Assembly (NCBI GenBank): GCA_018818405.1
Contig: JAHIRY010000038.1
Coordinates: forward strand, 35,449 to 99,448
Origin: Patescibacteria group bacterium
GTDB lineage: Bacteria; Patescibacteriota; Patescibacteriia; UBA11705; JABHMO01
Direction: 5' to 3'
Length of the DNA: 64,000 bases
The position numbers were made by a program, and so were the translations under genes. Positions 7,698 to 59,621 of the stretch are shown here, piece by piece (position 1 is the first letter of the stretch; the number at the start of each line of letters is the position of its first letter). The notes beneath the pieces are model-generated. The model was not told where the DNA came from. It was given only the letters and a program-made list of their open reading frames with translations, and ran no database searches.

Positions 7698-8747
7698 ATG
7701 GAAACTTCCATTGTATTCAAAATCGGAGTACTTAGCATTTTATCTTTTCTCATAGCTTTTTTTTGCACTCCGTTGCTTTCTCATTTTCTCTATAAATTCA
7801 AACTGGGAAAACAAATTCGCGACGCAAAAGAAACTCCGATTTTTTCCAATTTGCACAAAGAGAAAGAAGGCACGCCGACAATGGGAGGAATTCTGATCTG
7901 GGGAGCGACACTGATTATCGCATTAACATTTTATATTTTGCATTTTTTCTTTCCCGGATCTTTTCTCGGAGATTTGAATTTTCTGACGAGAGGCCAGACG
8001 CTTTTGCCGCTCGGAGCGCTCATCATTGCCGCCATTCTCGGACTTGTTGACGATTATCTGGGAGTAAAAAAAATCGGACCCAAAGGAGGCGGACTGGGAA
8101 TGCTTTACCGGCTCGGACTTTACGCAGTCATCGCTCTTGGCGGCGCTCTCTGGTTTTATTTCAAACTTGGCTGGGATGTTTTCCATGTTCCTTTTGTCGG
8201 AAATTTTGAAATCGGATTTTGGTATCTCCCGCTTTTCATATTTATCATTGTGGCCACCGCTTTTTCCGTCAATGAAACAGACGGACTCGACGGATTGGCC
8301 GGAGGAACATTGGCCACCGCTTTTGCGGCTGAAGGCGCGATCGCTTTTGCGCAGGGAAAATTCGAGCTGGCCGCTTTTTGCGGAGTGATCATGGGAGCTC
8401 TGATCGCTTTTCTCTGGTTCAATATCAATCCCGCCAGATTTTTTATGGGAGACACCGGCGCGATGAGCCTCGGAATCGTGCTCGGTATTATTGCAATGCT
8501 CACAAACACCGCATTGCTCTTGCCGATCATCGGATTTATTTTTGTAATAGAATCATTGTCCGTCATTATTCAAATATTATCAAAAAAAATTCGCGGCAAA
8601 AAAGTTTTTCTATCCGCTCCCATTCACCATCATCTGCAAGCCATCGGCTGGTCGGAAACAAAAATAGTAATGCGTTTCTGGCTGATTTCCTCCATTACCG
8701 CGGTCATCGGCGTTGTAATATTTTTATTGGACAAAGGGTGGTATTAA
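7698..8747 (+). CDS. mraY: phospho-N-acetylmuramoyl-pentapeptide transferase
   Basis: GTPTMGG, DDYLGV, NETDGLDGLA signature motifs. Confidence 0.9.
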   Translation: METSIVFKIGVLSILSFLIAFFCTPLLSHFLYKFKLGKQIRDAKETPIFSNLHKEKEGTPTMGGILIWGATLIIALTFYILHFFFPGSFLGDLNFLTRGQTLLPLGALIIAAILGLVDDYLGVKKIGPKGGGLGMLYRLGLYAVIALGGALWFYFKLGWDVFHVPFVGNFEIGFWYLPLFIFIIVATAFSVNETDGLDGLAGGTLATAFAAEGAIAFAQGKFELAAFCGVIMGALIAFLWFNINPARFFMGDTGAMSLGIVLGIIAMLTNTALLLPIIGFIFVIESLSVIIQILSKKIRGKKVFLSAPIHHHLQAIGWSETKIVMRFWLISSITAVIGVVIFLLDKGWY

Positions 8748-8802
8748 ATAAGCGAGATAAGTTTATCCCGCCCGCGGCGGGGCGAGTTAAGTGTATCATT
8801 CA
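8748..8802. repeat. dispersed repeat family R3, copy 1 (AGCGAGATAAG...GTTAAGTTTATCCCGCCC)
   Basis: shares ~45 nt with 42398-42485 and a partial/inverted copy at 11329-11423. Confidence 0.7.
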
Positions 8803-8869: not shown

Positions 8870-10207
8870 ATGAAAAAATTTCCCAGTTTCAAAAACAAAA
8901 AAATTCTCATCCTCGGACTCGGTTTGCTCGGACGCGGAATCAAGGATGCTATTTTTTTTGCGGAAAAAGGAGCTGACGTTAGAATTACGGATTTGAAGAC
9001 AGCTGATCAACTGAAAGAATCATTGGAAAAATTGAAAAAATATAATTTTAAATTCACTCTGGGCGAACACAAGGAGCAAGATATTTTGGAAGCTGATCTT
9101 ATTATTCGCAACGCCGCTGTTCCCGCATCTTCCGAATTTTTAAAATTTGCAAAAAAGAAAAAAATTCCGGTTGACATGGATGAATCTTTGTTCGCCGAAT
9201 ATTGTCCTTGTCCGATCATCGGCATTACCGGCACCAGAGGCAAGAGCACCACAACCGCGCTGATCGGAAAAATTTTGCAAAACAATCTGGAATTTTTAAA
9301 AAGAAAAAATGTTTATGTGGCGGGCAACATAAAAGGAGAAGCCACGCTTCCGCTGATCGACAAAGTGACAAAAGATGATTTGGTTGTTCTCGAACTTTCC
9401 AGCTGGCAACTCCAAGGATTCGGCCGAAAAAAAATCAGTCCCCATATTTCGATTGTCACCAATATTTATCCGGATCATCTCAATTCCTACAAAAACATGA
9501 GAGAATACGCCAATGACAAAAAATTTATTTTTCTTTTCCAGAAAAAAAAGGACTTCTGCATTTTGAATGAAAAAAATCCTTACACAAAAAAAATGGGACC
9601 GGAAGTAAAATCAAAATTGATCTGGTTTTCAAAAAAAGATGTGCCAAAAAATTGGAAATTAACAATGCTCGGAAAACATAATTTAGAAAACGCGTCCTCC
9701 GCCATGGCAGTGGGAAAAATTCTCGGACTTTCAAAAAAACAAATGCAATCAAGCATCTCTGAATTTCCCGGTCTGGAACATCGGCTTGAATTTGTAAAAA
9801 AATTGAATAATGTGAACTTTATAAACGACACAACCAGCACCACTCCCATTGCCGGCCAAAAAGCGCTCGAAGCCATTCCCGGACCAATCATTCTCATCGC
9901 CGGCGGCGCGAGCAAAAATTTGATATTAAAAGATTTCGCGAAAACAATAGTAAAAAAAGCGAAAAGCGTTATTCTTCTCGACGGAAATGCCACGGACGCG
10001 CTGGAACGCGATATCAAATATTTTGGCGGCGATCATCTGATCATCGGACGCTTCAACGATTTCAATGAAGCTGTGACGCGAGCGTATGACCATAGCTTGC
10101 CCGGCGATACTATTTTATTGTCTCCCGGTTGCGCCAGTTTTGGATTGTTTGTCAATGAATTTGACCGCGGAGAACAATTCAAAAAAATAGTTAACAAACT
10201 TCAATAA
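8870..10207 (+). CDS. murD: UDP-N-acetylmuramoylalanine--D-glutamate ligase
   Basis: N-terminal Rossmann GLGLLGRG, GITGTRGKSTTT P-loop; stop overlaps the ftsW ATG (TAATG). Confidence 0.9.
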   Translation: MKKFPSFKNKKILILGLGLLGRGIKDAIFFAEKGADVRITDLKTADQLKESLEKLKKYNFKFTLGEHKEQDILEADLIIRNAAVPASSEFLKFAKKKKIPVDMDESLFAEYCPCPIIGITGTRGKSTTTALIGKILQNNLEFLKRKNVYVAGNIKGEATLPLIDKVTKDDLVVLELSSWQLQGFGRKKISPHISIVTNIYPDHLNSYKNMREYANDKKFIFLFQKKKDFCILNEKNPYTKKMGPEVKSKLIWFSKKDVPKNWKLTMLGKHNLENASSAMAVGKILGLSKKQMQSSISEFPGLEHRLEFVKKLNNVNFINDTTSTTPIAGQKALEAIPGPIILIAGGASKNLILKDFAKTIVKKAKSVILLDGNATDALERDIKYFGGDHLIIGRFNDFNEAVTRAYDHSLPGDTILLSPGCASFGLFVNEFDRGEQFKKIVNKLQ

Positions 10208-11328
10208 TGCTTAAATTTAAAAAAACATCAGGCTATCACGCGCCAGATTATGTTTTGATTGCCGCCTTCGGATTACTCGTCTTTCTCGGCATTATCATAT
10301 TGTCTTCCGCCGGAGCTGCCATCGGATATCAAAAATTTTCCGACAGCTATTATCTGGTAAAGCATCAAATATTCTACGGACTTTTGCCGGGAATTGCTTT
10401 GTTTTTTCTTTTCTCGAAAATCAATTATCAAATTTGGAAAAAACTGACGCTTCCACTGCTGGTAATTTCCATTCTTCTGCTCATCATTGTTTTTATTCCC
10501 GGAATCGGCGCTGAATACGGAACAGCGAAAAGCTGGATAAATCTGGGAAATTTTTCTTTTCAGCCGGCAGAGCTGGTAAAGCTGACTTTTTTGCTTTACT
10601 TGGCAACATGGCTGGAAAAAAGAGGAATTTTTGGCGTCAAAGATTTTTATTCCGGATTTTTGCCTTTTTTATTTTTGATCGGCGTGATTTCCATTCTAAT
10701 GCTCTTGCAACCGGACATGGGAACCTTGACAATCATAATTTTCATGTGCATTTCGGTTTTCTTCGCATCCGGCGCAAAATTCAAACATGTCGCTTCATTG
10801 CTCATGGCCGGAGCGCTGGCGATTTATCTGTTGATCGTCAAATCTCCGTATCGCGCGGCGAGGCTAACCACTTTTCTCCATCCGGAGCTCGATCCGCAAG
10901 GAATCGGCTATCATATCAACCAAGCTTTTCTGGCAATCGGATCCGGCGGATTTTTCGGCCGAGGATTCGGACATTCCAGACAAAAATTTCTTTATCTTCC
11001 GGAAGTCACCGGCGATTCCATTTTCGCGGTAATGGCCGAGGAGCTCGGATTTTTCCTCTGTCTGTTAATCGTCGGACTTTACATTTTAATTTTTCTGCGC
11101 GGATTGAATATTGCAAAAAAATCTCCCGATCAATTCGGGAAATTAATTGTAATCGGCGTTCTGAGCTGGATTACCTTTCAATCATTTTTTAACATTTCCT
11201 CAATGCTCGGACTCCTGCCCATGACCGGCGTGCCTCTTCCATTCATCAGCTACGGCGGTTCTGCGCTGGCCGTGGGAATGGCCGCTTTCGGCATTGTCAC
11301 AAATATTTCAAAACAAACGCAAGAGTGA
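10207..11328 (+). CDS. ftsW: SEDS-family peptidoglycan polymerase FtsW/RodA
   Basis: 10-TM SEDS architecture, conserved PEVTGDSIFA and C-terminal GGSA motifs; dcw context. Confidence 0.85.
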   Translation: MLKFKKTSGYHAPDYVLIAAFGLLVFLGIIILSSAGAAIGYQKFSDSYYLVKHQIFYGLLPGIALFFLFSKINYQIWKKLTLPLLVISILLLIIVFIPGIGAEYGTAKSWINLGNFSFQPAELVKLTFLLYLATWLEKRGIFGVKDFYSGFLPFLFLIGVISILMLLQPDMGTLTIIIFMCISVFFASGAKFKHVASLLMAGALAIYLLIVKSPYRAARLTTFLHPELDPQGIGYHINQAFLAIGSGGFFGRGFGHSRQKFLYLPEVTGDSIFAVMAEELGFFLCLLIVGLYILIFLRGLNIAKKSPDQFGKLIVIGVLSWITFQSFFNISSMLGLLPMTGVPLPFISYGGSALAVGMAAFGIVTNISKQTQE

Positions 11329-11423
11329 ACGAAGCGTTAAAGCGAGAAAGCAAGAAAGCAAGTTAAGCTTGTAAGCTCGCGAGCAAAATACGTTAATTCT
11401 TCGTACAATGCTTATCTCGCTAA
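11329..11423. repeat. repeat family R3, copy 2, with an internal inverted AGCGAGATAAGCA arm
   Basis: AGCGAGAAAGCAAGAAAGCAAGTTAAGC ... TGCTTATCTCGCT. Confidence 0.6.
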
Positions 11424-12605
11424 TTACGGCGCCATCTCCCGTAATTTTTTTATTGCCACGGTCAGAGATTTGATAAAAGTATTTACTTCAACTTCAGTAT
11501 TATCTTTTCCCAACGAGATACGAATACTGCCATGCGCCCATTTCGGCTGAACGCCCATGGCGGTCAGCACATGCGACGGTTCCAACGAACCGGATGAACA
11601 CGCGGATCCGGTGGAAACCGCAACGCCATCCATATCGAGAAGCATGAGAATGCTCTCTCCTTCGGCATTTTGAAAACTCACATTGATAATATTCGGCAAT
11701 TGAAATTCTCCTTTGCCGTTGAATCTCACATTTTCGAATTTTTCCAATTCACCGGCAATTTTACTTTTTATTTTTTTTATTTTCTGAATATTTTTTTCCT
11801 GTTCATCAGCCACCAGTTCGACCGCTTTGCCAAGACCGACAATCCCCGGGACATTCAATGTTCCCGGCCGCAAACTGTATTCCTGATGTCCGCCGAAAGC
11901 GAGCGGCTCAAACTTTATTCCTCTTTTTGCAAACAATCCGCCGATTCCTTTCGGTCCGAATATTTTGTGTCCGGAAAAAGAAAGAAAATCAACGCCCAGC
12001 CAATTTACCTGGCAGGGCAAATAATTAAAAGCTTGCACTGCGTCAACATGAAAATAAATCGGCAAACCTTTTTCTCCGCGCCGGTCTCTTTCAACTTTTA
12101 TGATTTCGCTGATTTCTCTGATCGGTTGAATTGATCCGACTTCATTATTGGCGTACATAATGGAAATCAAAACGGTATTCGGCTGAATCAATTCTTTCAA
12201 TTTTTCCAATTTCACAACGCCCGCCGAGTCAACTTCAACAAAACCAGCTTCAATCCCCTCTTTTTTTGAAATCGTTTTAAATACTTCCAAAACAGAAGGA
12301 TGTTCTATTTTCGAAGTGATGATATGCAAATTGTCTTGTGTCTGCAAAAGTGAATTTATAATTCCCTGAATCGCCAAATTATTACTCTCGGTAGCGCCGG
12401 AAGTAAAAATAATTTCCTGCGTTTCACAACTCAAATAATTGGCGATTTTTTCTCTCGCATCATCAATCGCGCTCAGCGCTGATTGTCCCGACGAATGCGC
12501 TGAATTGGGATTGCCGAAATTTTCCTGAAAAAACGGCAACATTTCCTGCAACACGCGAGGATCGACTTTTGTTGTCGCTGAATTATCGTAATAAATTTCT
12601 TTCAT
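11424..12605 (-). CDS. iscS: cysteine desulfurase (NifS/IscS class)
   Basis: PLP-lysine region SGHKIFGPKGIGGL, conserved C-terminal active-site Cys loop. Confidence 0.9.
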   Translation of the reverse strand: MKEIYYDNSATTKVDPRVLQEMLPFFQENFGNPNSAHSSGQSALSAIDDAREKIANYLSCETQEIIFTSGATESNNLAIQGIINSLLQTQDNLHIITSKIEHPSVLEVFKTISKKEGIEAGFVEVDSAGVVKLEKLKELIQPNTVLISIMYANNEVGSIQPIREISEIIKVERDRRGEKGLPIYFHVDAVQAFNYLPCQVNWLGVDFLSFSGHKIFGPKGIGGLFAKRGIKFEPLAFGGHQEYSLRPGTLNVPGIVGLGKAVELVADEQEKNIQKIKKIKSKIAGELEKFENVRFNGKGEFQLPNIINVSFQNAEGESILMLLDMDGVAVSTGSACSSGSLEPSHVLTAMGVQPKWAHGSIRISLGKDNTEVEVNTFIKSLTVAIKKLREMAP

Positions 12606-12641
12606 AAAAATTATTTTTAAAATTCGTGATAAATTTATTTC

Positions 12642-12902
12642 TTATTCCACGGCAATCACTTCCGTCACTTCAGGCACGGCTTTTTTTATTTTCGCTTCTA
12701 CGAAATTTTTCAAAGTAATCGAAGCCATGGGACAATGCTTGCACGCTCCCTGCAAACGCACTTTTACTATTCCATTGTCATCAACTTCGACAAATTCCAA
12801 ATCGCCGCCATCCATCTGAATCGCCGGACGAATTTCTTCTATTACTTTTTTTACATCTTGCAACATAAACAATTTATTATTTTTAAAATTTGTTAATCGC
12901 AT
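12642..12902 (-). CDS. NifU C-terminal-domain (Nfu-type) Fe-S carrier; the start may be the internal MLQDVKK at 12866
   Basis: IRPAIQMDGGDLEFVEV...CKHCPMAS motif. Confidence 0.75.
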   Translation of the reverse strand: MRLTNFKNNKLFMLQDVKKVIEEIRPAIQMDGGDLEFVEVDDNGIVKVRLQGACKHCPMASITLKNFVEAKIKKAVPEVTEVIAVE

Positions 12903-12928
12903 CAGGCGGGTGCAACCCGCCTCTACAT
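12903..12928. repeat. hairpin module R1 (AGGCGGGTGCAACCCGCCTCTACA)
   Basis: identical 25-mer recurs inside the composite repeat at 39262-39286. Confidence 0.7.
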
Positions 12929-12934
12929 TTTTGA

Positions 12935-13330
12935 TTATCTCGCTTTCTCGCTCACCAACAAATAATTTTCAATCGCTTTTTTCAACGCATTCTGCGCCAA
13001 AATGGAACAATGCTGTTTGATCAACGGCACGCCGCCCAATTCTTCCACAATATCTTGTTTTGTAATTTTCATCGCCGAATCCAAGGTTTTTCCTTTTGCC
13101 AAATCTGTCAGAGAAGAAGAGGCGGCAATGGCAGCGGCGCAACCCAAAGTTTCGAATTTGATGTCATCAATGATTTCCTCGCCGGCTTGATTCTTTTTCA
13201 CTTTAATATAAATTTTCATGATATCACCGCATTTGATATTTCCCGCTTCACCGACAGCGTCAGCATCTTTAATTTTTCCCTGATTGTGCGGATTTTTGAA
13301 ATATTCCAATAATTTTTTTGAATACTGCAT
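12935..13330 (-). CDS. iscU: Fe-S cluster scaffold IscU/NifU N-terminal domain
   Basis: three conserved Cys (GNIKCGD, LGCAAA, QHCSILA), 131 aa. Confidence 0.9.
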   Translation of the reverse strand: MQYSKKLLEYFKNPHNQGKIKDADAVGEAGNIKCGDIMKIYIKVKKNQAGEEIIDDIKFETLGCAAAIAASSSLTDLAKGKTLDSAMKITKQDIVEELGGVPLIKQHCSILAQNALKKAIENYLLVSEKAR

Positions 13331-13420: not shown

Positions 13421-13540
13421 CAATTTCGAATTTAGGATTTAATTGAATTCTAGGCGCAAGATTTTGCGCCTCTACGAAATTCAAAATTTTAAATTGTGCT
13501 CCCTGCCAAGTGCTCTTTGCTCCCTGCTCATTGCTCGCTG
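13421..13540. repeat. composite structured intergenic repeat, copy 1 (nested hairpins plus CT-rich GCTCCCTGC tail) inserted between iscR and iscU
   Basis: near-identical TTTCGAATTTAGGATTTAATTGAATTCTAGGCGCAAGATTTTGCGCC and TGCTCCCTGC blocks at 39203-39345. Confidence 0.75.
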
Positions 13541-15200: not shown

Positions 15201-15331
15201 TACCTGTCAAACGGGGAGGAAAGAGATTGAGAGATTGAGAGATTCAGTAAATGAATAATTTTAGAACTAAAAATTACTCAATCTCTCTATCTCTAAATCT
15301 CTCAGTATCTCAATCCCACCTTCCGTCAAAC
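15201..15331. mobile_element. MITE-like hairpin element (~110 bp) with arms built from GAGATT hexamer repeats, flanked by a 7-bp direct repeat GTCAAAC
   Basis: GAGATTGAGAGATTGAGAGATTCAGTA ... TACTCAATCTCTCTATCTCTAAATCTC inverted arms; GTCAAAC at both ends. Confidence 0.45.
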
Positions 15332-22170: not shown

Positions 22171-22269
22171 CGCTGATATTAAATAAACAAATTTCACGCA
22201 TGATTGACGTAAAAAAATGAAAATGATAAATTTCAAATGGAAATAACCTGCGCACAAGGAGGAAAAAGC

Positions 22270-22923
22270 ATGCGCAATGCGAAATTTGTTCCGGTCATTC
22301 TTTTCTTTGCGGCGACCATGTTCGCCGCTTGCACAGACGAAAATGACAATTCGAAAAAAAAAGCAAGCGAAGGTGAAGCAGAATCGGTCGGCTCGATGAC
22401 AATCATTTCCATGCCGGTGGAAGACGCGGAAATCATTCTCAATGAAGAGGAAACCGGCCACCGCACGCCGCAGACTTTTCACAATCTTTCGCTCGGTCTT
22501 CACCAAATAGAACTGAAACTCGCCGGTCGGCGGCAAGCTGATATTCCGCTGGCGGTTTCTCTGACCGCCAAGGAGGAAGACTCCGATACTCCGCAATTAT
22601 TGAATGTTGAAATTTTCCTGTACCGAGAACTCTCGGGGGGATGGAAAGATGAATCCGGCGCGCGCGTCGAGGCGGAAATGGAAATTGTGACCGAGGAATA
22701 TGAATATCTGTGTCCTGACACGCCGCTCAGCGTTCGCGGATTCGATCCTGTCGGATCGCTCTGCGTGGAAAAAGACGATACGCTCTCACTCTGCAAAACG
22801 CATGACGCGAAATGCGGCGAGCAGTTTGCTCAAGGCAGGATCGCTGATGACGGCAATGTCGTGGAATTCACGGTAGCCGAATCTGAAAAAGTGATTCGCT
22901 ACACCAGACTCCCGACAATGTAA
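22270..22923 (+). CDS. lipoprotein with PEGA-like beta-sandwich domain (ORF from 22237; SD indicates the 22270 start)
   Basis: signal plus lipobox FAAC; MTIISMPVEDAEIILNEEETGHRTPQTF...HQIELKL PEGA-like pattern; paralog of 24046. Confidence 0.7.
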   Translation: MRNAKFVPVILFFAATMFAACTDENDNSKKKASEGEAESVGSMTIISMPVEDAEIILNEEETGHRTPQTFHNLSLGLHQIELKLAGRRQADIPLAVSLTAKEEDSDTPQLLNVEIFLYRELSGGWKDESGARVEAEMEIVTEEYEYLCPDTPLSVRGFDPVGSLCVEKDDTLSLCKTHDAKCGEQFAQGRIADDGNVVEFTVAESEKVIRYTRLPTM

Positions 22924-23030: not shown

Positions 23031-23250
23031 CTACGACGACAGCAGACTCTGAATCGAGTTCAGAGTGACAGGTGTGGGGCGCGAATTACTAACAATTGCA
23101 ATGAACCTCGAATAGTTGCCACAGTTTCGCAAATACGCAAATGCACAGTTACTCTTACTCCGTCGTCGGCTCTCCCATCGTCACTCTGAACTCGATTCAG
23201 AGTCTGCTTCCGGTTCGCTTAGTCGATTCGCTTACAATGTCGTCATCGCG
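23031..23250. repeat. palindromic repeat family R4, units a (inverted) and b (direct) (core CGTCACTCTGAACTCGATTCAGAGTCT plus ~45-nt tail)
   Basis: 23045-23069 and 23178-23250 are mutually inverted copies; core is itself a 9-bp-stem hairpin. Confidence 0.8.
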
Positions 23251-23267
23251 CAACAACTCACATACCG

Positions 23268-23573
23268 CTAATTCCACGTTGCGCTCAAATCTTCAAAATT
23301 AGGATTTTCCTTTTTTATCAAATCAATTTTCCACGGCCGATGCCATCGCTTCAATTGTTTTTCTCTGGCAATGGCAGAATACACATCCGTAAAATCCTCG
23401 TAATAAACTAATTTTTGTAAACAATAACGAGCGCTGAATGAATTTGGATTGTATTTATTTTTGTGTTCCCACAAACGCCGCTCAACATTGTTCGTCACGC
23501 CAATATAAAAAACCGTATTCCTTGTGTTTGTAATAATATATACATAATAATTACGTTGAACAAATTTTCGCAT
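23268..23573 (-). CDS. small GIY-YIG nuclease (YhbQ/COG2827-like)
   Basis: YVYIITNTRNTVFYIGVTNNVERRLWEH GIY-YIG core; 101 aa; paralog of 33838. Confidence 0.8.
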   Translation of the reverse strand: MRKFVQRNYYVYIITNTRNTVFYIGVTNNVERRLWEHKNKYNPNSFSARYCLQKLVYYEDFTDVYSAIAREKQLKRWHRPWKIDLIKKENPNFEDLSATWN

Positions 23574-23676
23574 ATCATTTTTTAAATCATGCTAACTAAT
23601 ACTTTCAGAATAGCACAATTTTTTTTCGACCGGAATAAACAACGAAACAATCGCGCCTTCGTTCAGCGAAACTTCC

Positions 23677-23905
23677 GACGCTAACAGACTCTGAATCGAG
23701 TTCAGAGTGACGGGGTGCGGCGCGTCGTCTCATCATCATCATGATTATCCTCGTCACTCTGAACTCGATTCAGAGTCTCCCTCCGGTTTCACCTAGTCGG
23801 TTCCGCTACGACAGCGTCCGCCCGCCCCTCCTCATCGTCACTCTGAACTCGATTCAGAGTCTCTTTTCGGTTTCGCTTAGTCGATTCGACTGCAACGGCG
23901 TCGCG
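23677..23905. repeat. repeat family R4, units c (inverted), d and e (direct, tandem)
   Basis: 23677-23712, 23749-23819, 23833-23905 share the CGTCACTCTGAACTCGATTCAGAGTCT core and tail. Confidence 0.8.
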
Positions 23906-24045: not shown

Positions 24046-24756
24046 ATGAAGACGAGAACCATGTTTCTCTGTGTCCTGTTCCTTTTTTTGACAACCGTAG
24101 CCGCATCCTGCGGCGAAGACCCCACCAACGCGCCGGGCGAAGGCGAAGGCGAAGGCGAAGGCGAGGGTGAAGGCGAGGGCGAAGGCGAAGGCGAGGGCGA
24201 AGGCGAGCAGCTCGGCTCGCTTACCGTCACCTCCGCGCCGCACGACGGCGCGCAGATCATCATGGATGGCGTGGACACCGGATTCGTCACCCCGCACACG
24301 TTCGACGAGATCAGTGTGGGACGGCACGAGGTCGAGCTCAAGCTCGACGGCCGGATCCAGGCCTACATCCCGCAGGAGGTCGTCCTGACCTCCGGCAAGG
24401 AAGACAGCACCGTGCCGCCAAGCGCCACGGCCGAAATCTTTCTGTATCTGGATCTGACGGGAAAATGGTATGAAGCGGAAATAAATCGGACGACCGAAGC
24501 AGTGGTTTTCCCAAGTGCCAGACTCCAACAACCGGAAATCTCCTGCCCAACCACGGAGATGGCGGCAGGCAAATTTCCCCTATACAACACACTGTGCATC
24601 GAGAGAGACGACTCTCTCTCTCTCTGCAAAGACCATGCCAGCGACTGTTATGGAGCCGAAGTCCGCGGCTCCGTTCAGGAAAACGGCACGAAGATCGAAG
24701 TCACAGATTTCTTTTTTTCTCCGCCGAGGGTACTACACTACACTCTGGTGCAGTGA
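24046..24756 (+). CDS. PEGA-domain lipoprotein paralog with (GE)13 low-complexity linker, strikingly GC-rich (~60%)
   Basis: signal plus lipobox AASC; LTVTSAPHDGAQIIMDGVDTGFVTPHTF aligns colinearly with the 22270 protein; SD AAGGAGG. Confidence 0.75.
   Translation: MKTRTMFLCVLFLFLTTVAASCGEDPTNAPGEGEGEGEGEGEGEGEGEGEGEGEQLGSLTVTSAPHDGAQIIMDGVDTGFVTPHTFDEISVGRHEVELKLDGRIQAYIPQEVVLTSGKEDSTVPPSATAEIFLYLDLTGKWYEAEINRTTEAVVFPSARLQQPEISCPTTEMAAGKFPLYNTLCIERDDSLSLCKDHASDCYGAEVRGSVQENGTKIEVTDFFFSPPRVLHYTLVQ
24136..24207 (+). repeat. (GGCGAA/GGCGAG)n hexanucleotide tandem repeat encoding (GE)n
   Basis: about 11-12 tandem hexamers seen directly. Confidence 0.85.
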
Positions 24757-33781: not shown

Positions 33782-33860
33782 GTCGCACTTCGACAAGCTC
33801 AGTGTGACAGGGGGGGGGAAGCGCCCCCTCTCACTTGTCAGGCTGAGCCTGCCGAAGCCC
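33782..33860. repeat. repeat family R5 (inverted unit, G9/C5 hairpin, partial direct unit), downstream of the GIY-YIG gene
   Basis: GTCGCACTTCGACAAGCTCAGTGTGAC, AGGGGGGGGGAAGCGCCCCCT, CTGAGCCTGCCGAAG. Confidence 0.75.
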
Positions 33861-34143
33861 CGTTCGACAACTCCTTCAATCTTTCAATATTCCCCTCAAT
33901 TAATGCAACTTTCTTTCTGCGGCTCCAACCTTTTATTTGTTTTTCTCTGGCGATCGCGTCATTCACATAATAATGTTCTTCCGCATATACCAATCGAACC
34001 GGCCGCCGCGAATATGTATAACTTTTTTCGCTTATTCCCAAATTATGTTCATCCAGCCTTCGTTCAATATTATTTGTTATTCCCGTATACAAACTCCGAT
34101 CGCTGCATTCAACTATATAAACCGTGTATATCTTTCTAAACAT
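33838..34143 (-). CDS. small GIY-YIG nuclease, second paralog (ORF to 34167; likely start is MFRKIY at 34143)
   Basis: YTVYIVECSDRSLYTGITNNIERRLDEH GIY-YIG core; C-terminus is read through the R5 repeat. Confidence 0.8.
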   Translation of the reverse strand: MFRKIYTVYIVECSDRSLYTGITNNIERRLDEHNLGISEKSYTYSRRPVRLVYAEEHYYVNDAIAREKQIKGWSRRKKVALIEGNIERLKELSNGASAGSA

Positions 34144-34160
34144 TTGCAATAAACTTTTAT

Positions 34161-34311
34161 GTCGCACTTCGGCAGGCTCAGTGTGACATGAATTTAACTG
34201 TCACACTGAGGCTAAAAGCCTGTCCCGAGTCGCATCGAGCGGAAGCGTGCTATCATCGTCATCGCAATAACTGTCACACTGAGCCTGCCGAAGTGCCGCT
34301 TCGCTTAACAC
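34161..34311. repeat. repeat family R5: one inverted and two direct units (GTCACACTGAGCCTGCCGAAGTGC...TTCGCTTAACAC)
   Basis: 34161-34187 (inverted), 34200-34222, 34273-34311; 11-bp stem between the first two. Confidence 0.8.
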
Positions 34312-36180: not shown

Positions 36181-36238
36181 CGGAAATGTGGAATTGTAAG
36201 GGTTCAACATGTTGAACCCTTACAATTCCACATTTCCG
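36181..36238. repeat. 58-bp perfect palindrome (29-bp arms) between prfB and rsmA
   Basis: CGGAAATGTGGAATTGTAAGGGTTCAACA|TGTTGAACCCTTACAATTCCACATTTCCG verified base by base. Confidence 0.9.
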
Positions 36239-39062: not shown

Positions 39063-39202
39063 ATTATATTTTTATTTCGAATTTCATTTTGAGGTCGCTA
39101 ATTTACCGCCGCAGCGTGCGGGGTTCCGCTCGCAGCGGGACGAATGTCACAAATATTACGAATTATCCTTTGCAACTAAAAAATTTATAATTTATTATTT
39201 TA

Positions 39203-39345
39203 GTATTTCGAATTTAGAATTTTATTTAATTGAATTCCAGGCGCAAGATTTTGCGCCGGATTAGGCGGGTGCAACCCGCCTCTACAAAAATTGTTACATG
39301 CTTCATGTTATGTGCTCCTTGCTCCCTGCTCCTTTCTCCCTGCCA
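39203..39345. repeat. composite structured intergenic repeat, copy 2 (includes the R1 hairpin module)
   Basis: same blocks as 13421-13540 plus the AGGCGGGTGCAACCCGCCTCTACA module. Confidence 0.75.
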
Positions 39346-42397: not shown

Positions 42398-42485
42398 TAA
42401 GATAGTAAGCGAGATAAGCAAGAAAGAGAGATAAGCAAGTTAAGTTTATCCCGCCCTCGGTGGAACGAGTTAAGTTATAATTCGC
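42398..42485. repeat. repeat family R3, copy 3
   Basis: AGCGAGATAAGCAAGAAAGAGAGATAAGCAAGTTAAGTTTATCCCGCCCTCGG...GAGTTAAGT. Confidence 0.7.
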
Positions 42486-46397: not shown

Positions 46398-47486
46398 TTA
46401 TTTCGTCAAAAATTGAAAACTGTTTACAATCATGCCAAACAATGCCGGAAAATCAGCTGTTTCCTTCAGACCGATATTATAATTGATAATGTAAACTGTG
46501 TCCTCTTTTGCCAGATAAACGGTAAAAGCATCCGGACTTTCGATCACTGTCAATTTTTCAGTTGTGGTATAGGATTTCAAATCGGATTTGTTTACATCCG
46601 GAGCTTTTTCCAGATACCAATCTTCCAGACTTTGCTCCGGCGCTTTTTCCGACATCAGAACATTTACAAATTCATTGCGCGCTGAAGTGATCATAACATC
46701 TCGACCGGCTTCATCCACAGCATTCAAAAGCCATGTGGACGGATACAAGAGACTATAACCCCATTGTTCATTTGTATATAATTTCACAAAATCTTTTTCC
46801 GACAACATGACAGCTGTCGCGTCAATCGGGCTGTAAAGATTTTTCAATTCACCTCCATCCGGATAACCATCGCCGTCAGTGTCTGACAATCCCGCGTTAG
46901 TTCCGATTAAATTTTCCTCAACATCAGTCAATCCGTCTTTGTCAGTATCAAGACTGCCAACCATGGAAAGAGCTGTTTGGCGAATTTTAGATGGATCAAA
47001 TGCTTCTATTTCCGGAATTTCCTCTTCCGCAACTTCAGTTTCAACTACCGGAATCTCCGTAATTGCGACTTCCTCTTCCGGAACAACAGGAACTTCAACT
47101 GCCGGCGCGGCCGGCGCTTCGCCCAACTGCGGAGTCACTGCCGGAGCCGGTGTTTGCATGCTTTGATACAAGAGCCAGGCAGAACCGGCGACAAGCACAA
47201 CCAAAATTATTATCACAATGATTGTCAATCCTTTTTTACCGCCCTTCTTTTCTCCGGCCGGAGCGGCAACATTTCCCGAAACGCCGGCAGATGTTTTTAC
47301 TCCTTGATAATATTCCATTGGCATGGTGTGAATAACTTCCGCGCCAACAGGTTCAGCGGTTTTAACAGGAGCGCTCGCTTCCATCGGTTGAGCCGGTGCA
47401 ACGGGCGGCGGAGGCGCGGCAACTTGCGGTGCCGGAACTGCGGCCGGCGTCGGTTGATTTTGTTTTGGTGTCAAATCATCGAACAT
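46398..47486 (-). CDS. membrane protein: P/A-rich N-terminus, single TM, thrombospondin-type-3 repeats (ORF to 47516; start taken at MFDD)
   Basis: DTDKDGLTDVEE, DTDGDGYPDGGE; paralog of 47694, which also starts MFDD. Confidence 0.65.
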   Translation of the reverse strand: MFDDLTPKQNQPTPAAVPAPQVAAPPPPVAPAQPMEASAPVKTAEPVGAEVIHTMPMEYYQGVKTSAGVSGNVAAPAGEKKGGKKGLTIIVIIILVVLVAGSAWLLYQSMQTPAPAVTPQLGEAPAAPAVEVPVVPEEEVAITEIPVVETEVAEEEIPEIEAFDPSKIRQTALSMVGSLDTDKDGLTDVEENLIGTNAGLSDTDGDGYPDGGELKNLYSPIDATAVMLSEKDFVKLYTNEQWGYSLLYPSTWLLNAVDEAGRDVMITSARNEFVNVLMSEKAPEQSLEDWYLEKAPDVNKSDLKSYTTTEKLTVIESPDAFTVYLAKEDTVYIINYNIGLKETADFPALFGMIVNSFQFLTK

Positions 47487-47526: not shown

Positions 47527-47669
47527 TCGTTTCATGGCGGTGTAGAGACGCATTGCAATGCGTCGCTACATCGCCATGAAGCGATGACGGCGGCGTGTGT
47601 TTTGTCGCGACAATATACGGCGCGGCGGTAAGTAGCGGCGGGTCTAGACCCGCCGCTACTTACCGCCGC
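47527..47669. repeat. GC-rich nested palindromes: a 9-bp outer stem enclosing an 18-bp perfect palindrome, plus a separate 48-bp perfect palindrome
   Basis: TTCATGGCG...GACGCATTGCAATGCGTC...CGCCATGAA; GCGGCGGTAAGTAGCGGCGGGTCT|AGACCCGCCGCTACTTACCGCCGC. Confidence 0.85.
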
Positions 47670-47693: not shown

Positions 47694-48464
47694 TTACAAT
47701 TTCCCCGGACCATTCGGATTATAACCGCCGTCCACCTCGTCGCCATCGCTGTAAGTATCTTTGTCAGTATCAGGATCCAGCGGATTTGTTTTGTGAACTT
47801 TTACTTCATCATAATCAGACAAACCGTCTCCGTCAGTATCAACAACTTTTTCATCTGTTTTCAATTCCATTTCTTCAGCATCAGTCAGTCCGTCTCCGTC
47901 AGTATCAAGACTATCATTGGTCGGCGCAACATTCGCCTCCACCGGTTTTGGAATTTCAACCGCAGGCGTCGGAGTCGGCTTTGCGGGCGCCGGTTCTATT
48001 GTTTCTTTTATAACTTGCACATTTTGATCGACAATGACAAAAGGATTTTTTTCTCCTTCCAAGCGCGCCGATATAAATCCATACAAAACATAACCCGAAG
48101 CGCCGAGCAATATTAAAAGCAATACAAGCACGGCAATCCATTTCACTTTTCCGGGACTTGACGGCGCGGGCATTGCCGGCTGAGTCGGCATATTTGCCGC
48201 TGGCGGAGAAACCGGAGCCGACGGTTTAATGTTTTCATAAATATCAACAACTTTTTGTTCGCCTGTCGGTGCCGGGTTCAATGGTTGTTGCATCGGAGCC
48301 GAAACATTCGGCGCGGGCGCAACCGGCGGAGGCGTTGGAACCGCGGGTTGCGGTACGGAAGCTGGAACCATTGGTTGAGGAGCCGGAGCCGGCGGAGTTG
48401 TTGATTGCGGAGCCGGAACAGCTGGCTGAGTCGGCGCACTTGATTGCGATTGATCATCAAACAT
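47694..48464 (-). CDS. membrane protein with P-rich N-terminus, TM helix and thrombospondin-type-3 repeats
   Basis: DTDGDGLTDAEE, DTDGDGLSDYDE, DPDTDKDTYSDGDE. Confidence 0.65.
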   Translation of the reverse strand: MFDDQSQSSAPTQPAVPAPQSTTPPAPAPQPMVPASVPQPAVPTPPPVAPAPNVSAPMQQPLNPAPTGEQKVVDIYENIKPSAPVSPPAANMPTQPAMPAPSSPGKVKWIAVLVLLLILLGASGYVLYGFISARLEGEKNPFVIVDQNVQVIKETIEPAPAKPTPTPAVEIPKPVEANVAPTNDSLDTDGDGLTDAEEMELKTDEKVVDTDGDGLSDYDEVKVHKTNPLDPDTDKDTYSDGDEVDGGYNPNGPGKL

Positions 48465-59496: not shown

Positions 59497-59621
59497 GGCA
59501 GCGGCGGAGAATTAAGATTAAGATTAAGGAGAAAAATTAAGGAAATAAAAATCCAAGCCCTAATTCTTAATCTTATCCTTATCCCTAATTCTTTCACCGC
59601 AACGGCGCCGGCGGAGAATCG
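59497..59621. mobile_element. second hexamer-repeat hairpin element (TAAGAT-type arms) flanked by an 11-bp direct repeat CGGCGGAGAAT
   Basis: GAGAATTAAGATTAAGATTAAGGAG ... CTAATTCTTAATCTTATCCTTATCCC; direct repeats at 59503-59513 and 59609-59619. Confidence 0.4.

Follow-up and report, generated by a model that had tools for sequence, protein, structure and literature searches.

Two GC-rich palindromes, which we call P1 and P2, lie side by side within the 207-nt spacer that separates two minus-strand TSP3-repeat genes in a 64,000-nucleotide stretch of DNA from a Patescibacteria group bacterium (the window). We propose that P1 and P2 are probably two neighbouring copies from a family of GTAG-tagged REP-like elements that is specific to this lineage, and that together they make up a heterodimeric, BIME-like cluster. 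A REP-like element had been among the possibilities raised in the original prediction, and the presence of a GTAG head, a GC-rich stem and sequence-related copies elsewhere in the genome or population bears it out. The elements would constitute a REP family that is new for its phylum, from which we found no described REP, and that includes an unusual perfect-palindrome variant.

P2 (47622-47669, no strand assigned) is a perfect 48-bp palindrome with a central spacer of zero length and, as predicted, with 24-bp arms, GCGGCGGTAAGTAGCGGCGGGTCT and AGACCCGCCGCTACTTACCGCCGC. Its core (47632-47659) reads GTAG-C-GGCGGGT-CTAG-ACCCGCC-G-CTAC and represents a double-tagged type-A REP-like hairpin. In the outer arms of P2, GCGGCGGTAA and TTACCGCCGC, the tag and the half-stem are repeated with a 13-nt period, the outer arm on the minus strand being GTAGCGGCGG-TAA-GTAGCGGCGGG. 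P1 (47526-47585, no strand assigned) had been described as a 9-bp outer stem enclosing a perfect 18-bp palindrome. Both parts are present, with the stem formed by TTCATGGCG (47531-47539) and CGCCATGAA (47572-47580) and the palindrome, GACGCATTGCAATGCGTC, located at 47547-47564, and the symmetry extends further, to a 60-bp near-palindrome with 30-nt arms that display 90% complementarity. The P1 core (47542-47569), GTAG-A-GACGCAT-TGCA-ATGCGTC-G-CTAC, is a type-B REP-like hairpin with a single mismatch, which falls at the N position. The two elements score almost alike against the covariance model of the family, R1 (35.3 bits for P1; 35.1 bits, E = 4.5e-8, for P2). The 36-nt spacer between them (47586-47621, no strand assigned) is GC-rich, carries the motif GACGGCGGCG and contains a weak palindrome at 47597-47618. 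P1, this spacer and P2 form a BIME-like cluster.

The symmetry of this locus is far beyond chance expectation. The P2 21-mer, GCGGCGGTAAGTAGCGGCGGG, was absent from every shuffle of the window, even when three mismatches were allowed, and single-strand folding gave z = -9.1 for P2 and z = -7.3 for P1. The entire 207-nt spacer, folded as RNA, has a free energy of -95.9 kcal/mol versus -54.4 ± 4.0 kcal/mol for its shuffles (z = -10.4). Palindromes tend to break assemblies, and P2 is a point where short-read assemblies stop: a Logan contig (L003) agrees with the locus up to its own end, which is located 6 nt beyond the P2 centre. As this contig agrees to its end and an independent ENA assembly (L001) has an identical P1/P2 locus sequence, the palindromes are not a one-off assembly artefact.

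Taken as a whole, P2 is unique, because the 21-mer has no second copy in the window at up to three mismatches and is matched by none of 185,579 species genomes and by nothing in the JGI metagenomes; the full 48-bp sequence likewise has no exact copy in the window or in either of these collections. A search with the exact 21-mer, which had been put forward as a check, thus returned no other copy, though the family does appear when the core and the short form are used. Indeed, the family becomes visible only through its short form, GTAGAGGCGGGTTGCACCCGCC, and through the 28-bp core that its members conserve. The 10-mer GCGGCGGTAA from the outer arm is not significantly enriched (seven occurrences with at most one mismatch, 3.8 expected), and the P1 18-mer has one weak intragenic match, with three mismatches, which we took as chance.

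All members of the family share one architecture. Each has a 5′ GTAG head (rarely GTAA), followed by one variable base, a GC-rich stem of 7-9 bp and a loop of 3-4 nt; the core spans 27-28 nt, and its stem comprises 8 bp, or 12 bp when the tags are paired. In the short forms, this head and stem are combined with an asymmetric loop of 3-4 nt, CTAC is missing, and a single side bears the tag. P1, P2 and a 58-bp element described below are symmetrised forms that carry the tag on both strands, as a base-paired GTAG...CTAC. The 28-bp unit of these long forms can be written as GTAG-N-stem(7)-4-nt centre-stem′-N′-CTAC, where the centre is self-complementary (CTAG, TGCA or CATG). In P1, P2, the 58-bp element and the long forms on three metagenomic contigs (L017, L020, L024), GTAG, replaced by GTAA once, begins at a fixed distance of 14 nt from the symmetry centre, and the perfect palindrome of the long forms extends 4-15 bp beyond the tags into sequence that is specific to each copy.

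Model R1 detects six elements in the window (E ≤ 1.4e-6) and nothing further below E = 0.005. One type-A short element, GTAG-AGGCGGGT-TGC-ACCCGCCT (12900-12926, minus strand, 30.1 bits), is located 8 nt past the NifU stop codon, and another (39259-39285, minus strand, 32.7 bits) is located 63 nt past the NrdG stop codon. These two elements share an identical 23-mer, GTAGAGGCGGGTTGCACCCGCCT (12904-12926 and 39263-39285), in each case just downstream of a minus-strand gene. A type-B short element, GTAG-AGGCGCAA-AATC-TTGCGCCT (13448-13475, minus strand, 31.8 bits), lies between the Rrf2 and NifU genes. The type-C long element (36181-36238, no strand assigned, 30.6 bits) is a perfect 58-bp palindrome with the core GTAA-G-GGTTCAA-CATG-TTGAACC-C-TTAC, which begins 24 nt past the RF-1 stop codon and stops 54 nt short of the KsgA gene. 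The two further copies of the P2 inner part, GGCGGGT-loop-ACCCGCC, that the window contains are those within the 23-mer shared by the two type-A short elements.

The NrdG-associated element is followed by an untagged type-B-like hairpin (39240-39262), and both are found within a mosaic module of ~250 bp. The half-site related to P2 that had been reported at 39101-39118, CGCTAATTTACCGCCGC, is in fact located at 39097-39113; it is no half of P2 and belongs to a different repeated intergenic module. The gap at 38.6-39.35 kb was also considered as a dnaA/oriC region, a reading that we rejected on account of its neighbours (NrdG, a small membrane protein and HtrA). A module of this gap is also found upstream of dnaA on contig L020. 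Hairpin repeats of another kind, tagged with CGTC or TGTC, flank two small GIY-YIG nuclease genes (23044-23862 and 33785-34296), and an exact-protein look-up of the GIY-YIG gene returned its own locus only.

Three additional R1 elements are present in 13 kb of same-genome DNA past the ends of the window, which brings the density to nine elements in 77 kb, or one in roughly every 8.6 kb. Should the genome measure ~1 Mb, an extrapolation from these 77 kb would give a total of roughly 100 copies. The same model finds no element in 119 kb of DNA from 13 related genera. A reading of the elements as uptake sequences was rejected because this density is too low. All members are intergenic, and most are located just 3′ of a gene, usually at a distance of 8-100 nt from the upstream stop codon. 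The same-genome intergenic loci all (7/7) fall between co-directional genes, at 8-126 nt from the upstream stop codon; the co-directional location is weak evidence, because nearly all window genes share one strand.

GTAG is rare in this genome, with 72 occurrences on both strands of 128 kb (observed/expected ratio of 0.15), and yet it heads five of the ~104 hairpin loci in the window, which was not chosen for the motif, versus an expectation of ~0.06. The five loci are P1, P2 and the short forms whose heads are at 12926, 13475 and 39285, while the 58-bp element is headed by GTAA. The GTAG head spans stem types A and B, and type C has GTAA in the window and GTAG on contig L024. In an alignment of 13 distinct members, 98% of the cells of the 8-bp stem are paired and both sides change in seven of the eight pairs; none of the shuffled and slid controls came near this level of covariation.

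Further members were found in the metagenome Ga0180007. The exact 22-mer of the short form has 10 occurrences on nine contigs, all of them from this metagenome, which also contains a contig 100% identical to positions 1-2622 of the window. The tetranucleotide usage of the nine contigs correlates with that of the window at 0.89-0.97 (0.96 for the contig identical to the window start and 0.28-0.87 for other genera), and the contigs have no genes in common with the window. Considering (i) the window-like tetranucleotide usage and (ii) the absence of shared genes, the Ga0180007 contigs, L017-L025 among them, appear to be further stretches of this genome, or else to come from very close relatives, an assignment that for L017-L025 is made from composition only.

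On these contigs, each type of long element has a counterpart. Two relatives of P2, a perfect 50-bp palindrome at L020 12639-12688 and a perfect 36-bp palindrome at L017 1478-1513, carry the core GTAGTGGCGGGTCTAGACCCGCCACTAC, which differs from that of P2 by a compensatory C>T / G>A change. The relative of P1 at L020 12443-12490 is a perfect 48-bp palindrome with the core GTAGAGGCGCATTGCAATGCGCCTCTAC that overlaps the dnaN stop codon. For the 58-bp element, the counterpart is a perfect 54-bp palindrome at L024 13327-13380, which has a GTAG tag and the core GTAGGGGTTCAACATGTTGAACCCCTAC. The outer arms are wholly unlike between copies, with GCGGCGGTAA in P2 of the window, CGGATTTATGA on L020 and AAAG on L017. 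Clusters recur as well: L017 has three elements, L022 and L027 have two each, and the type-B long and type-A long pair that follows dnaN on L020 repeats the pairing of P1 with P2.

The family cores are found after dnaN, nifU, nrdG and RF-1, near gatB and upstream of pth, and these contexts bear on the possibility that P1 and P2 are targets of a protein at the DNA level. Such a target could be an operator bound by a dimeric regulator of the downstream TSP3 gene, a site of cruciform formation or of recombination (dif, attC, oriT or protelomerase-like) or an origin-type hairpin, the last variant being linked to the neighbouring genes with T4SS-pilin domains. The symmetry that runs through the centre of the palindromes (TCTAGA, TTGCAA), which RNA folding does not need, and the location of P1 44 nt upstream of a start codon speak for this idea. 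We nevertheless regard it as highly improbable, as the same cores occur at many housekeeping loci and are confined neither to this operon nor to any mobile element, the genes next to the palindromes include no recombinase, relaxase or regulator, and at 48-60 bp they are far longer than an operator. The dif, attC, oriT and protelomerase-site readings were rejected for the many housekeeping contexts and for the absence of a cognate enzyme gene nearby.

In the minus-strand transcript, P2 is predicted to form a perfect 22-bp hairpin of about -40 kcal/mol that starts 24 nt past the upstream stop codon, and P1 is predicted to form a second strong hairpin that ends 44 nt before the next ATG. An alternative is that P1 and P2 are ordinary intrinsic terminators that evolved in place after the upstream TSP3 gene, the resemblance of their hairpins to others being convergence on GC-rich stems. 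The short distance between the stop codon and P2 is what this explanation expects, and the A- and T-runs that flank the elements at L020 12443-12490, L017 1478-1513 and L024 13327-13380 are reminiscent of bidirectional terminators. P1 and P2, however, have no U-tract on either relevant side (the minus strand continues with GCCGTATATTG after P2 and with ACGATAAAAAT after P1), and a terminator scan calls neither. The genome has at least six canonical terminators with an A-tract/hairpin/T-tract organization, and these contain stems of 10-13 bp and asymmetric, non-palindromic loops, whereas stems of 22-27 perfect base pairs go far beyond the needs of termination. Furthermore, the gene contexts in which identical 22-23-mers recur are unrelated, and three unrelated stem sequences have the rare GTAG head in common, both of which point to dispersal and not to convergence. 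We therefore consider the terminator explanation unlikely.

As REP-like elements, P1 and P2 would most likely serve as a barrier to 3′ exonucleases, as a partial terminator or attenuator, or as an RNase III site. With any such role at the RNA level, the upstream message would be more stable and expression of the two TSP3 genes, which in some relatives are only 11 nt apart, would be uncoupled; we infer that P1 and P2 most likely act as decoupling transcript hairpins. The terminator or insulator role named in the original prediction would be a plausible function at this level. Intercistronic roles of this kind, in which the message is stabilised or expression uncoupled, have been described or proposed for REPs in enterobacterial operons.

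The gene pair that surrounds the palindromes is older than the palindromes appear to be. The upstream gene (47694-48464, minus strand) encodes a 256-aa protein with a Pro-rich N-terminus, one TM segment and bacterial TSP3 repeats (TSP3_bac, E = 2e-13). The downstream gene (46398-47486, minus strand, ATG at 47486-47484) encodes a 362-aa protein with a TSP3-like repeat and a conserved C-terminal domain. The genes around P1 and P2 almost all lie on the minus strand: the 256-aa TSP3 gene is preceded by the genes of two very large proteins that contain T4SS-pilin and Ig-like domains, and the 362-aa gene is followed, in this order, by those for YbeY, diacylglycerol kinase, FtsA, FtsZ and NrdD. The window has a GC content of 43.6%, which does not agree with the AT-rich genome assumed originally, and a tRNA search of it found none. 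As the homologues of the 362-aa protein, which are ~50% identical at most, come from Parcubacteria, Falkowbacteria and Kuenenbacteria, the host is a member of the Patescibacteria (CPR), here assigned to the Parcubacteria.

The two TSP3 genes had been taken for duplicated paralogs. The only parts that their products have in common are the TSP3 repeats, which are 58% identical over 38 aa, and an MFDD/Pro-rich N-terminus, and a recent duplication is not what the relatives suggest: in the 13 related genera retrieved via the downstream 362-aa protein, the short-plus-long TSP3 gene pair is kept in 12. The genes are thus an old tandem pair and not the product of a recent duplication, and they were probably co-transcribed. 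The orthologous spacers of the pair in the related genera are 11-216 nt long and mostly AT-rich, and they fold at 0 to -0.26 kcal/mol per nt, compared to -0.46 kcal/mol per nt in the window. None of the spacers from the 13 genera contains a long palindrome or an R1 match, and the conservation in relatives that had been suggested as a check is therefore absent at the orthologous position. Because the spacers of the relatives are short, weakly structured and free of long palindromes, P1 and P2 are a lineage-specific insertion, added to an old gene pair.

This comparison also weighs on a group of explanations in which P1 and P2 are a structured cis-regulatory or small RNA (for instance, the 5′ leader of the downstream gene), the scar of a local duplication or an artefact of assembly. 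The predicted fold is indeed very strong, and assembly L003 does stop inside the palindrome. Against a conserved regulatory RNA (the original prediction had named a structured RNA as one option), Rfam 15 has no match in the window at gathering thresholds and gives only sub-threshold matches to generic miRNA hairpins on both strands, the orthologous spacer is unconserved in 13 genera, and the structure is strand-symmetric. An artefact is contradicted by the identical ENA assembly, and the related copies found elsewhere argue against both a scar and an artefact. We assign very little probability to any of these explanations.

The perfect inverted arms and the multi-copy core of the family could also be those of a non-autonomous mobile element, namely a MITE or IS remnant that consists solely of its two terminal inverted repeats (TIRs), or a doublet of the REPIN type that is mobilised as one unit. 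In TIRs and REPINs, the termini are the conserved part. Here, it is the centre that is conserved and not the ends, with outer arms that differ between P2 and its relatives at L020 12639-12688 and L017 1478-1513. As neither a target-site duplication nor a direct repeat surrounds P1 or P2 and no transposase is encoded nearby, a mobile element of this type is distinctly unlikely.

The REP-like elements themselves would probably have spread with the help of a nuclease that recognises single-strand hairpins, be it of the RAYT (HUH Y1) kind or another enzyme. A tblastn search of the window and the family loci, which make up a minority of the genome, with E. coli RayT (NC_000913.3) gave one weak and spurious match, to FolD, and a scan for the RAYT/Y1 motif Y..NP in the same minority of the genome found none. 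The perfect palindromes call for a second process. As selection at the RNA level needs neither a self-complementary loop nor 22-27 perfect pairs, we infer that the elements may have been symmetrised at the DNA level, where the collapse of inverted (head-to-head) dimers or hairpin-templated strand switching would perfect and extend the palindromes; these two routes are suggested by outer arms that are perfect and yet copy-specific. The correction of quasipalindromes by intrastrand template switching is known from the Ripley model and from E. coli studies. It would account both for the perfection that runs through the centre and for the perfect locus-specific outer arms, but it is a mutational mechanism and not an element family. 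A more far-reaching version, in which an active, RAYT-independent REP system turns single-tagged REPs into double-tagged palindromes by hairpin-templated strand switching or with a hairpin nuclease and goes on to lengthen them to perfect palindromes of 36-58 bp with locus-specific arms, and in which GIY-YIG is a possible partner of the CGTC-type REPs, is tentative and, in our estimation, rather doubtful.

CPR genomes are roughly 1 Mb in size and are usually described as streamlined and repeat-poor, and REPs are known from Proteobacteria above all and, beyond these, from a few other phyla. A REP family that is present at an E. coli-like density and accompanied by mosaic modules would show that dispersed hairpin repeats are tolerated, or put to use, in CPR genomes. 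Such a family would furthermore provide markers for strain typing and explain why short-read assemblies break at particular intergenic sites. The long, perfect, double-tagged palindromes would offer a natural system for examining how palindromes are perfected and tolerated under a minimal repair repertoire.

Among known systems, the closest counterpart of P1 and P2 is found in GTAG-tagged REPs, which are defined by a GT(A/G)G head placed directly before a GC-rich palindrome with 2-4 interrupting bases (Nunvar 2010, PMC2817692). The published REPs of H. parasuis, GTAGGGTGGGTCTTGACCCACC, and S. maltophilia, TGTAGAGCCGAGCCCATGCTCGGCT (PMC2817692), closely resemble GTAGAGGCGGGTTGCACCCGCCT of the window. 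A survey of 24 GTAG families described stems of 6-13 bp, short loops and sub-families with compensatory changes, as well as frequent dimers and clusters; the elements mostly lie between ORFs that are unidirectional or convergent, near the 3′ end of the upstream one (Di Nocera 2013, PMC3733652). The elements described here share with GTAG-tagged REPs (i) the 5′ GT(A/G)G head, to which a perfect, GC-rich stem (7-9 bp) with a loop of 3-4 nt is directly joined, (ii) sub-families with compensatory stem changes, (iii) an extragenic location between unidirectional genes, near the 3′ end of the upstream ORF, and (iv) an organization into singletons, dimers and clusters, with several families per genome. 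The copy number of REPs, classically above 100, ranges in publications from a few to several hundred. Some REP-bearing strains have no RAYT (PMC3733652).

The differences concern the host and the symmetry. The 2013 survey found REPs in eight phyla, and Patescibacteria/CPR, the host phylum here, are absent from its list (PMC3733652); our literature search for REPs in this phylum found no report. The tag of GTAG-tagged REPs is classically unpaired, whereas in P1 and P2 it pairs with the CTAC of the opposite arm. GTAG-tagged REPs are usually 20-40 bp long, compared to 48-60 bp for the palindromes P1 and P2, and a perfect double-tagged form of 36-58 bp with copy-specific arms is not described in the literature that we examined. 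Intrinsic terminators resemble P1 and P2 in having a GC-rich hairpin soon past a stop codon, and some members of the family elsewhere are accompanied by A- and T-tracts; P1 and P2 differ from them in lacking a U-tract, in having stems of 2-3 times the length found in the genome's canonical terminators, and in belonging to a dispersed sequence family with a conserved tag. A REPIN or HH dimer consists of two complete inverted hairpins and a spacer, whereas each long palindrome here is a single hairpin that carries both tags. With BIMEs and REP dimers, the locus shares the presence of two REP types in one spacer, as P1 is of type B and P2 of type A. The REPs here are also accompanied by additional repeated motifs, namely GGAGCAR runs, AAGCGAGATAAG / CTTAACTCGC and TTCGTAA repeats, but the spacing and these accessory motifs are unrelated to those of enterobacterial BIMEs.

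The stretch between the RF-1 and KsgA genes carries a 58-bp perfect palindrome (36181-36238), 24 nt 3′ of the former and 54 nt 5′ of the latter, whose two 29-nt arms abut without a spacer around the core GTAAGGGTTCAACA|TGTTGAACCCTTAC. This palindrome is a member of the same REP-like family as P1 and P2, the GC-rich palindromes between the two TSP3-repeat genes, and its GTAG-tagged relative lies inside a 54-bp perfect palindrome on the metagenome contig L024 (13327-13380). On a second such contig, L020, positions 9400-12700 cover the rnpA/yidD–dnaA–dnaN region, either of this genome or of a close relative's. A type-B long and a type-A long palindrome are found there directly 3′ of dnaN, a pairing equal to that of P1 and P2 in the window.

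The L020 region also contains, upstream of dnaA, a copy of an intergenic module of mosaic structure, roughly 250 bp long, that is repeated directly 5′ of the ATG of unrelated genes, namely those for a small membrane protein and HtrA, pth, dnaA, and glyA. Its copies are located at 39093-39345 of the window (minus strand), L028 1560-1790, L020 9460-9650, L025 950-1390, and L023 680-990. The module is built from runs of GGAGCAR, a conserved 30-mer, a GTAG-tagged short REP, a second hairpin, an AT-rich stretch, one to three tandem copies of the hairpin CCCCGCACGCTGCGGYGG, and TTCGTAA repeats, in this order, and a promoter or leader may lie within it. The motif near 39100, which the original prediction took for a related half-site, is part of the window copy of this module.

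A second set of intergenic repeats consists of the motifs AAGCGAGATAAG / GAGTTAAGC (complement CTTAACTCGC) and occurs at 8747-8792, 12935-12960, and 42406-42478 of the window and at L027 4200-4370, being also common to L019 and L020. It often adjoins REP-like hairpins or a CCCGCC...GGCGGG hairpin. At 15222-15315 and 59513-59581, intergenic inverted structures are formed by the simple repeats (GAGATT)n and (TAAGAT)n and the complements of each.

Across the whole window, two palindromic tetranucleotides, ACGT and CTAG, are far rarer than expected. ACGT is found 44 times on both strands, giving observed/expected ratios of 0.09 from base composition and 0.34 from a Markov model, and CTAG is found 28 times (ratio of 0.06), with one of these rare sites forming the center of P2. 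This scarcity may reflect the avoidance of restriction sites.

In public short-read assemblies of the source organism, contigs tend to begin or stop at these palindromes or repeat clusters, or beside them; examples are the end of the Logan contig L003 (window position 47640), the start of L030 (near 23950), the end of L020, and the start of L024. These elements break up assemblies, and MAGs probably under-represent them.

Two genes for GIY-YIG nucleases are each enclosed by hairpins. The first, a stand-alone gene on the minus strand (23268-23573), encodes 101 amino acids and matches the Pfam family with E = 1.4e-16. It is bracketed, within 23044-23862, by five copies of a hairpin of the form CGTC-ACTCTGAA-CTCGA-TTCAGAGT-CT, one of which carries TGTC in place of the CGTC tag; two of the copies, at 23179-23206 and 23685-23712, face each other across the gene as a perfect inverted repeat of 28 nt. 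The cassette is flanked by a pair of PEGA-domain paralogues (22237-22923 and 24046-24756). The second gene (33865-34128, minus strand), whose product is 40% identical to the first, is bracketed within 33785-34296 by its own hairpin-forming inverted repeats, GCACTTCGRCARGCTCAGTGTGACA / TGTCACACTGAGCCTGCCGAAGYGC, with the tag TGTC. As both nuclease genes are flanked by tagged palindromes, this arrangement suggests small mobile cassettes. The CGTC-tagged hairpin fits the published architecture of CGTC-type REPs, a class described as having no dedicated transposase.
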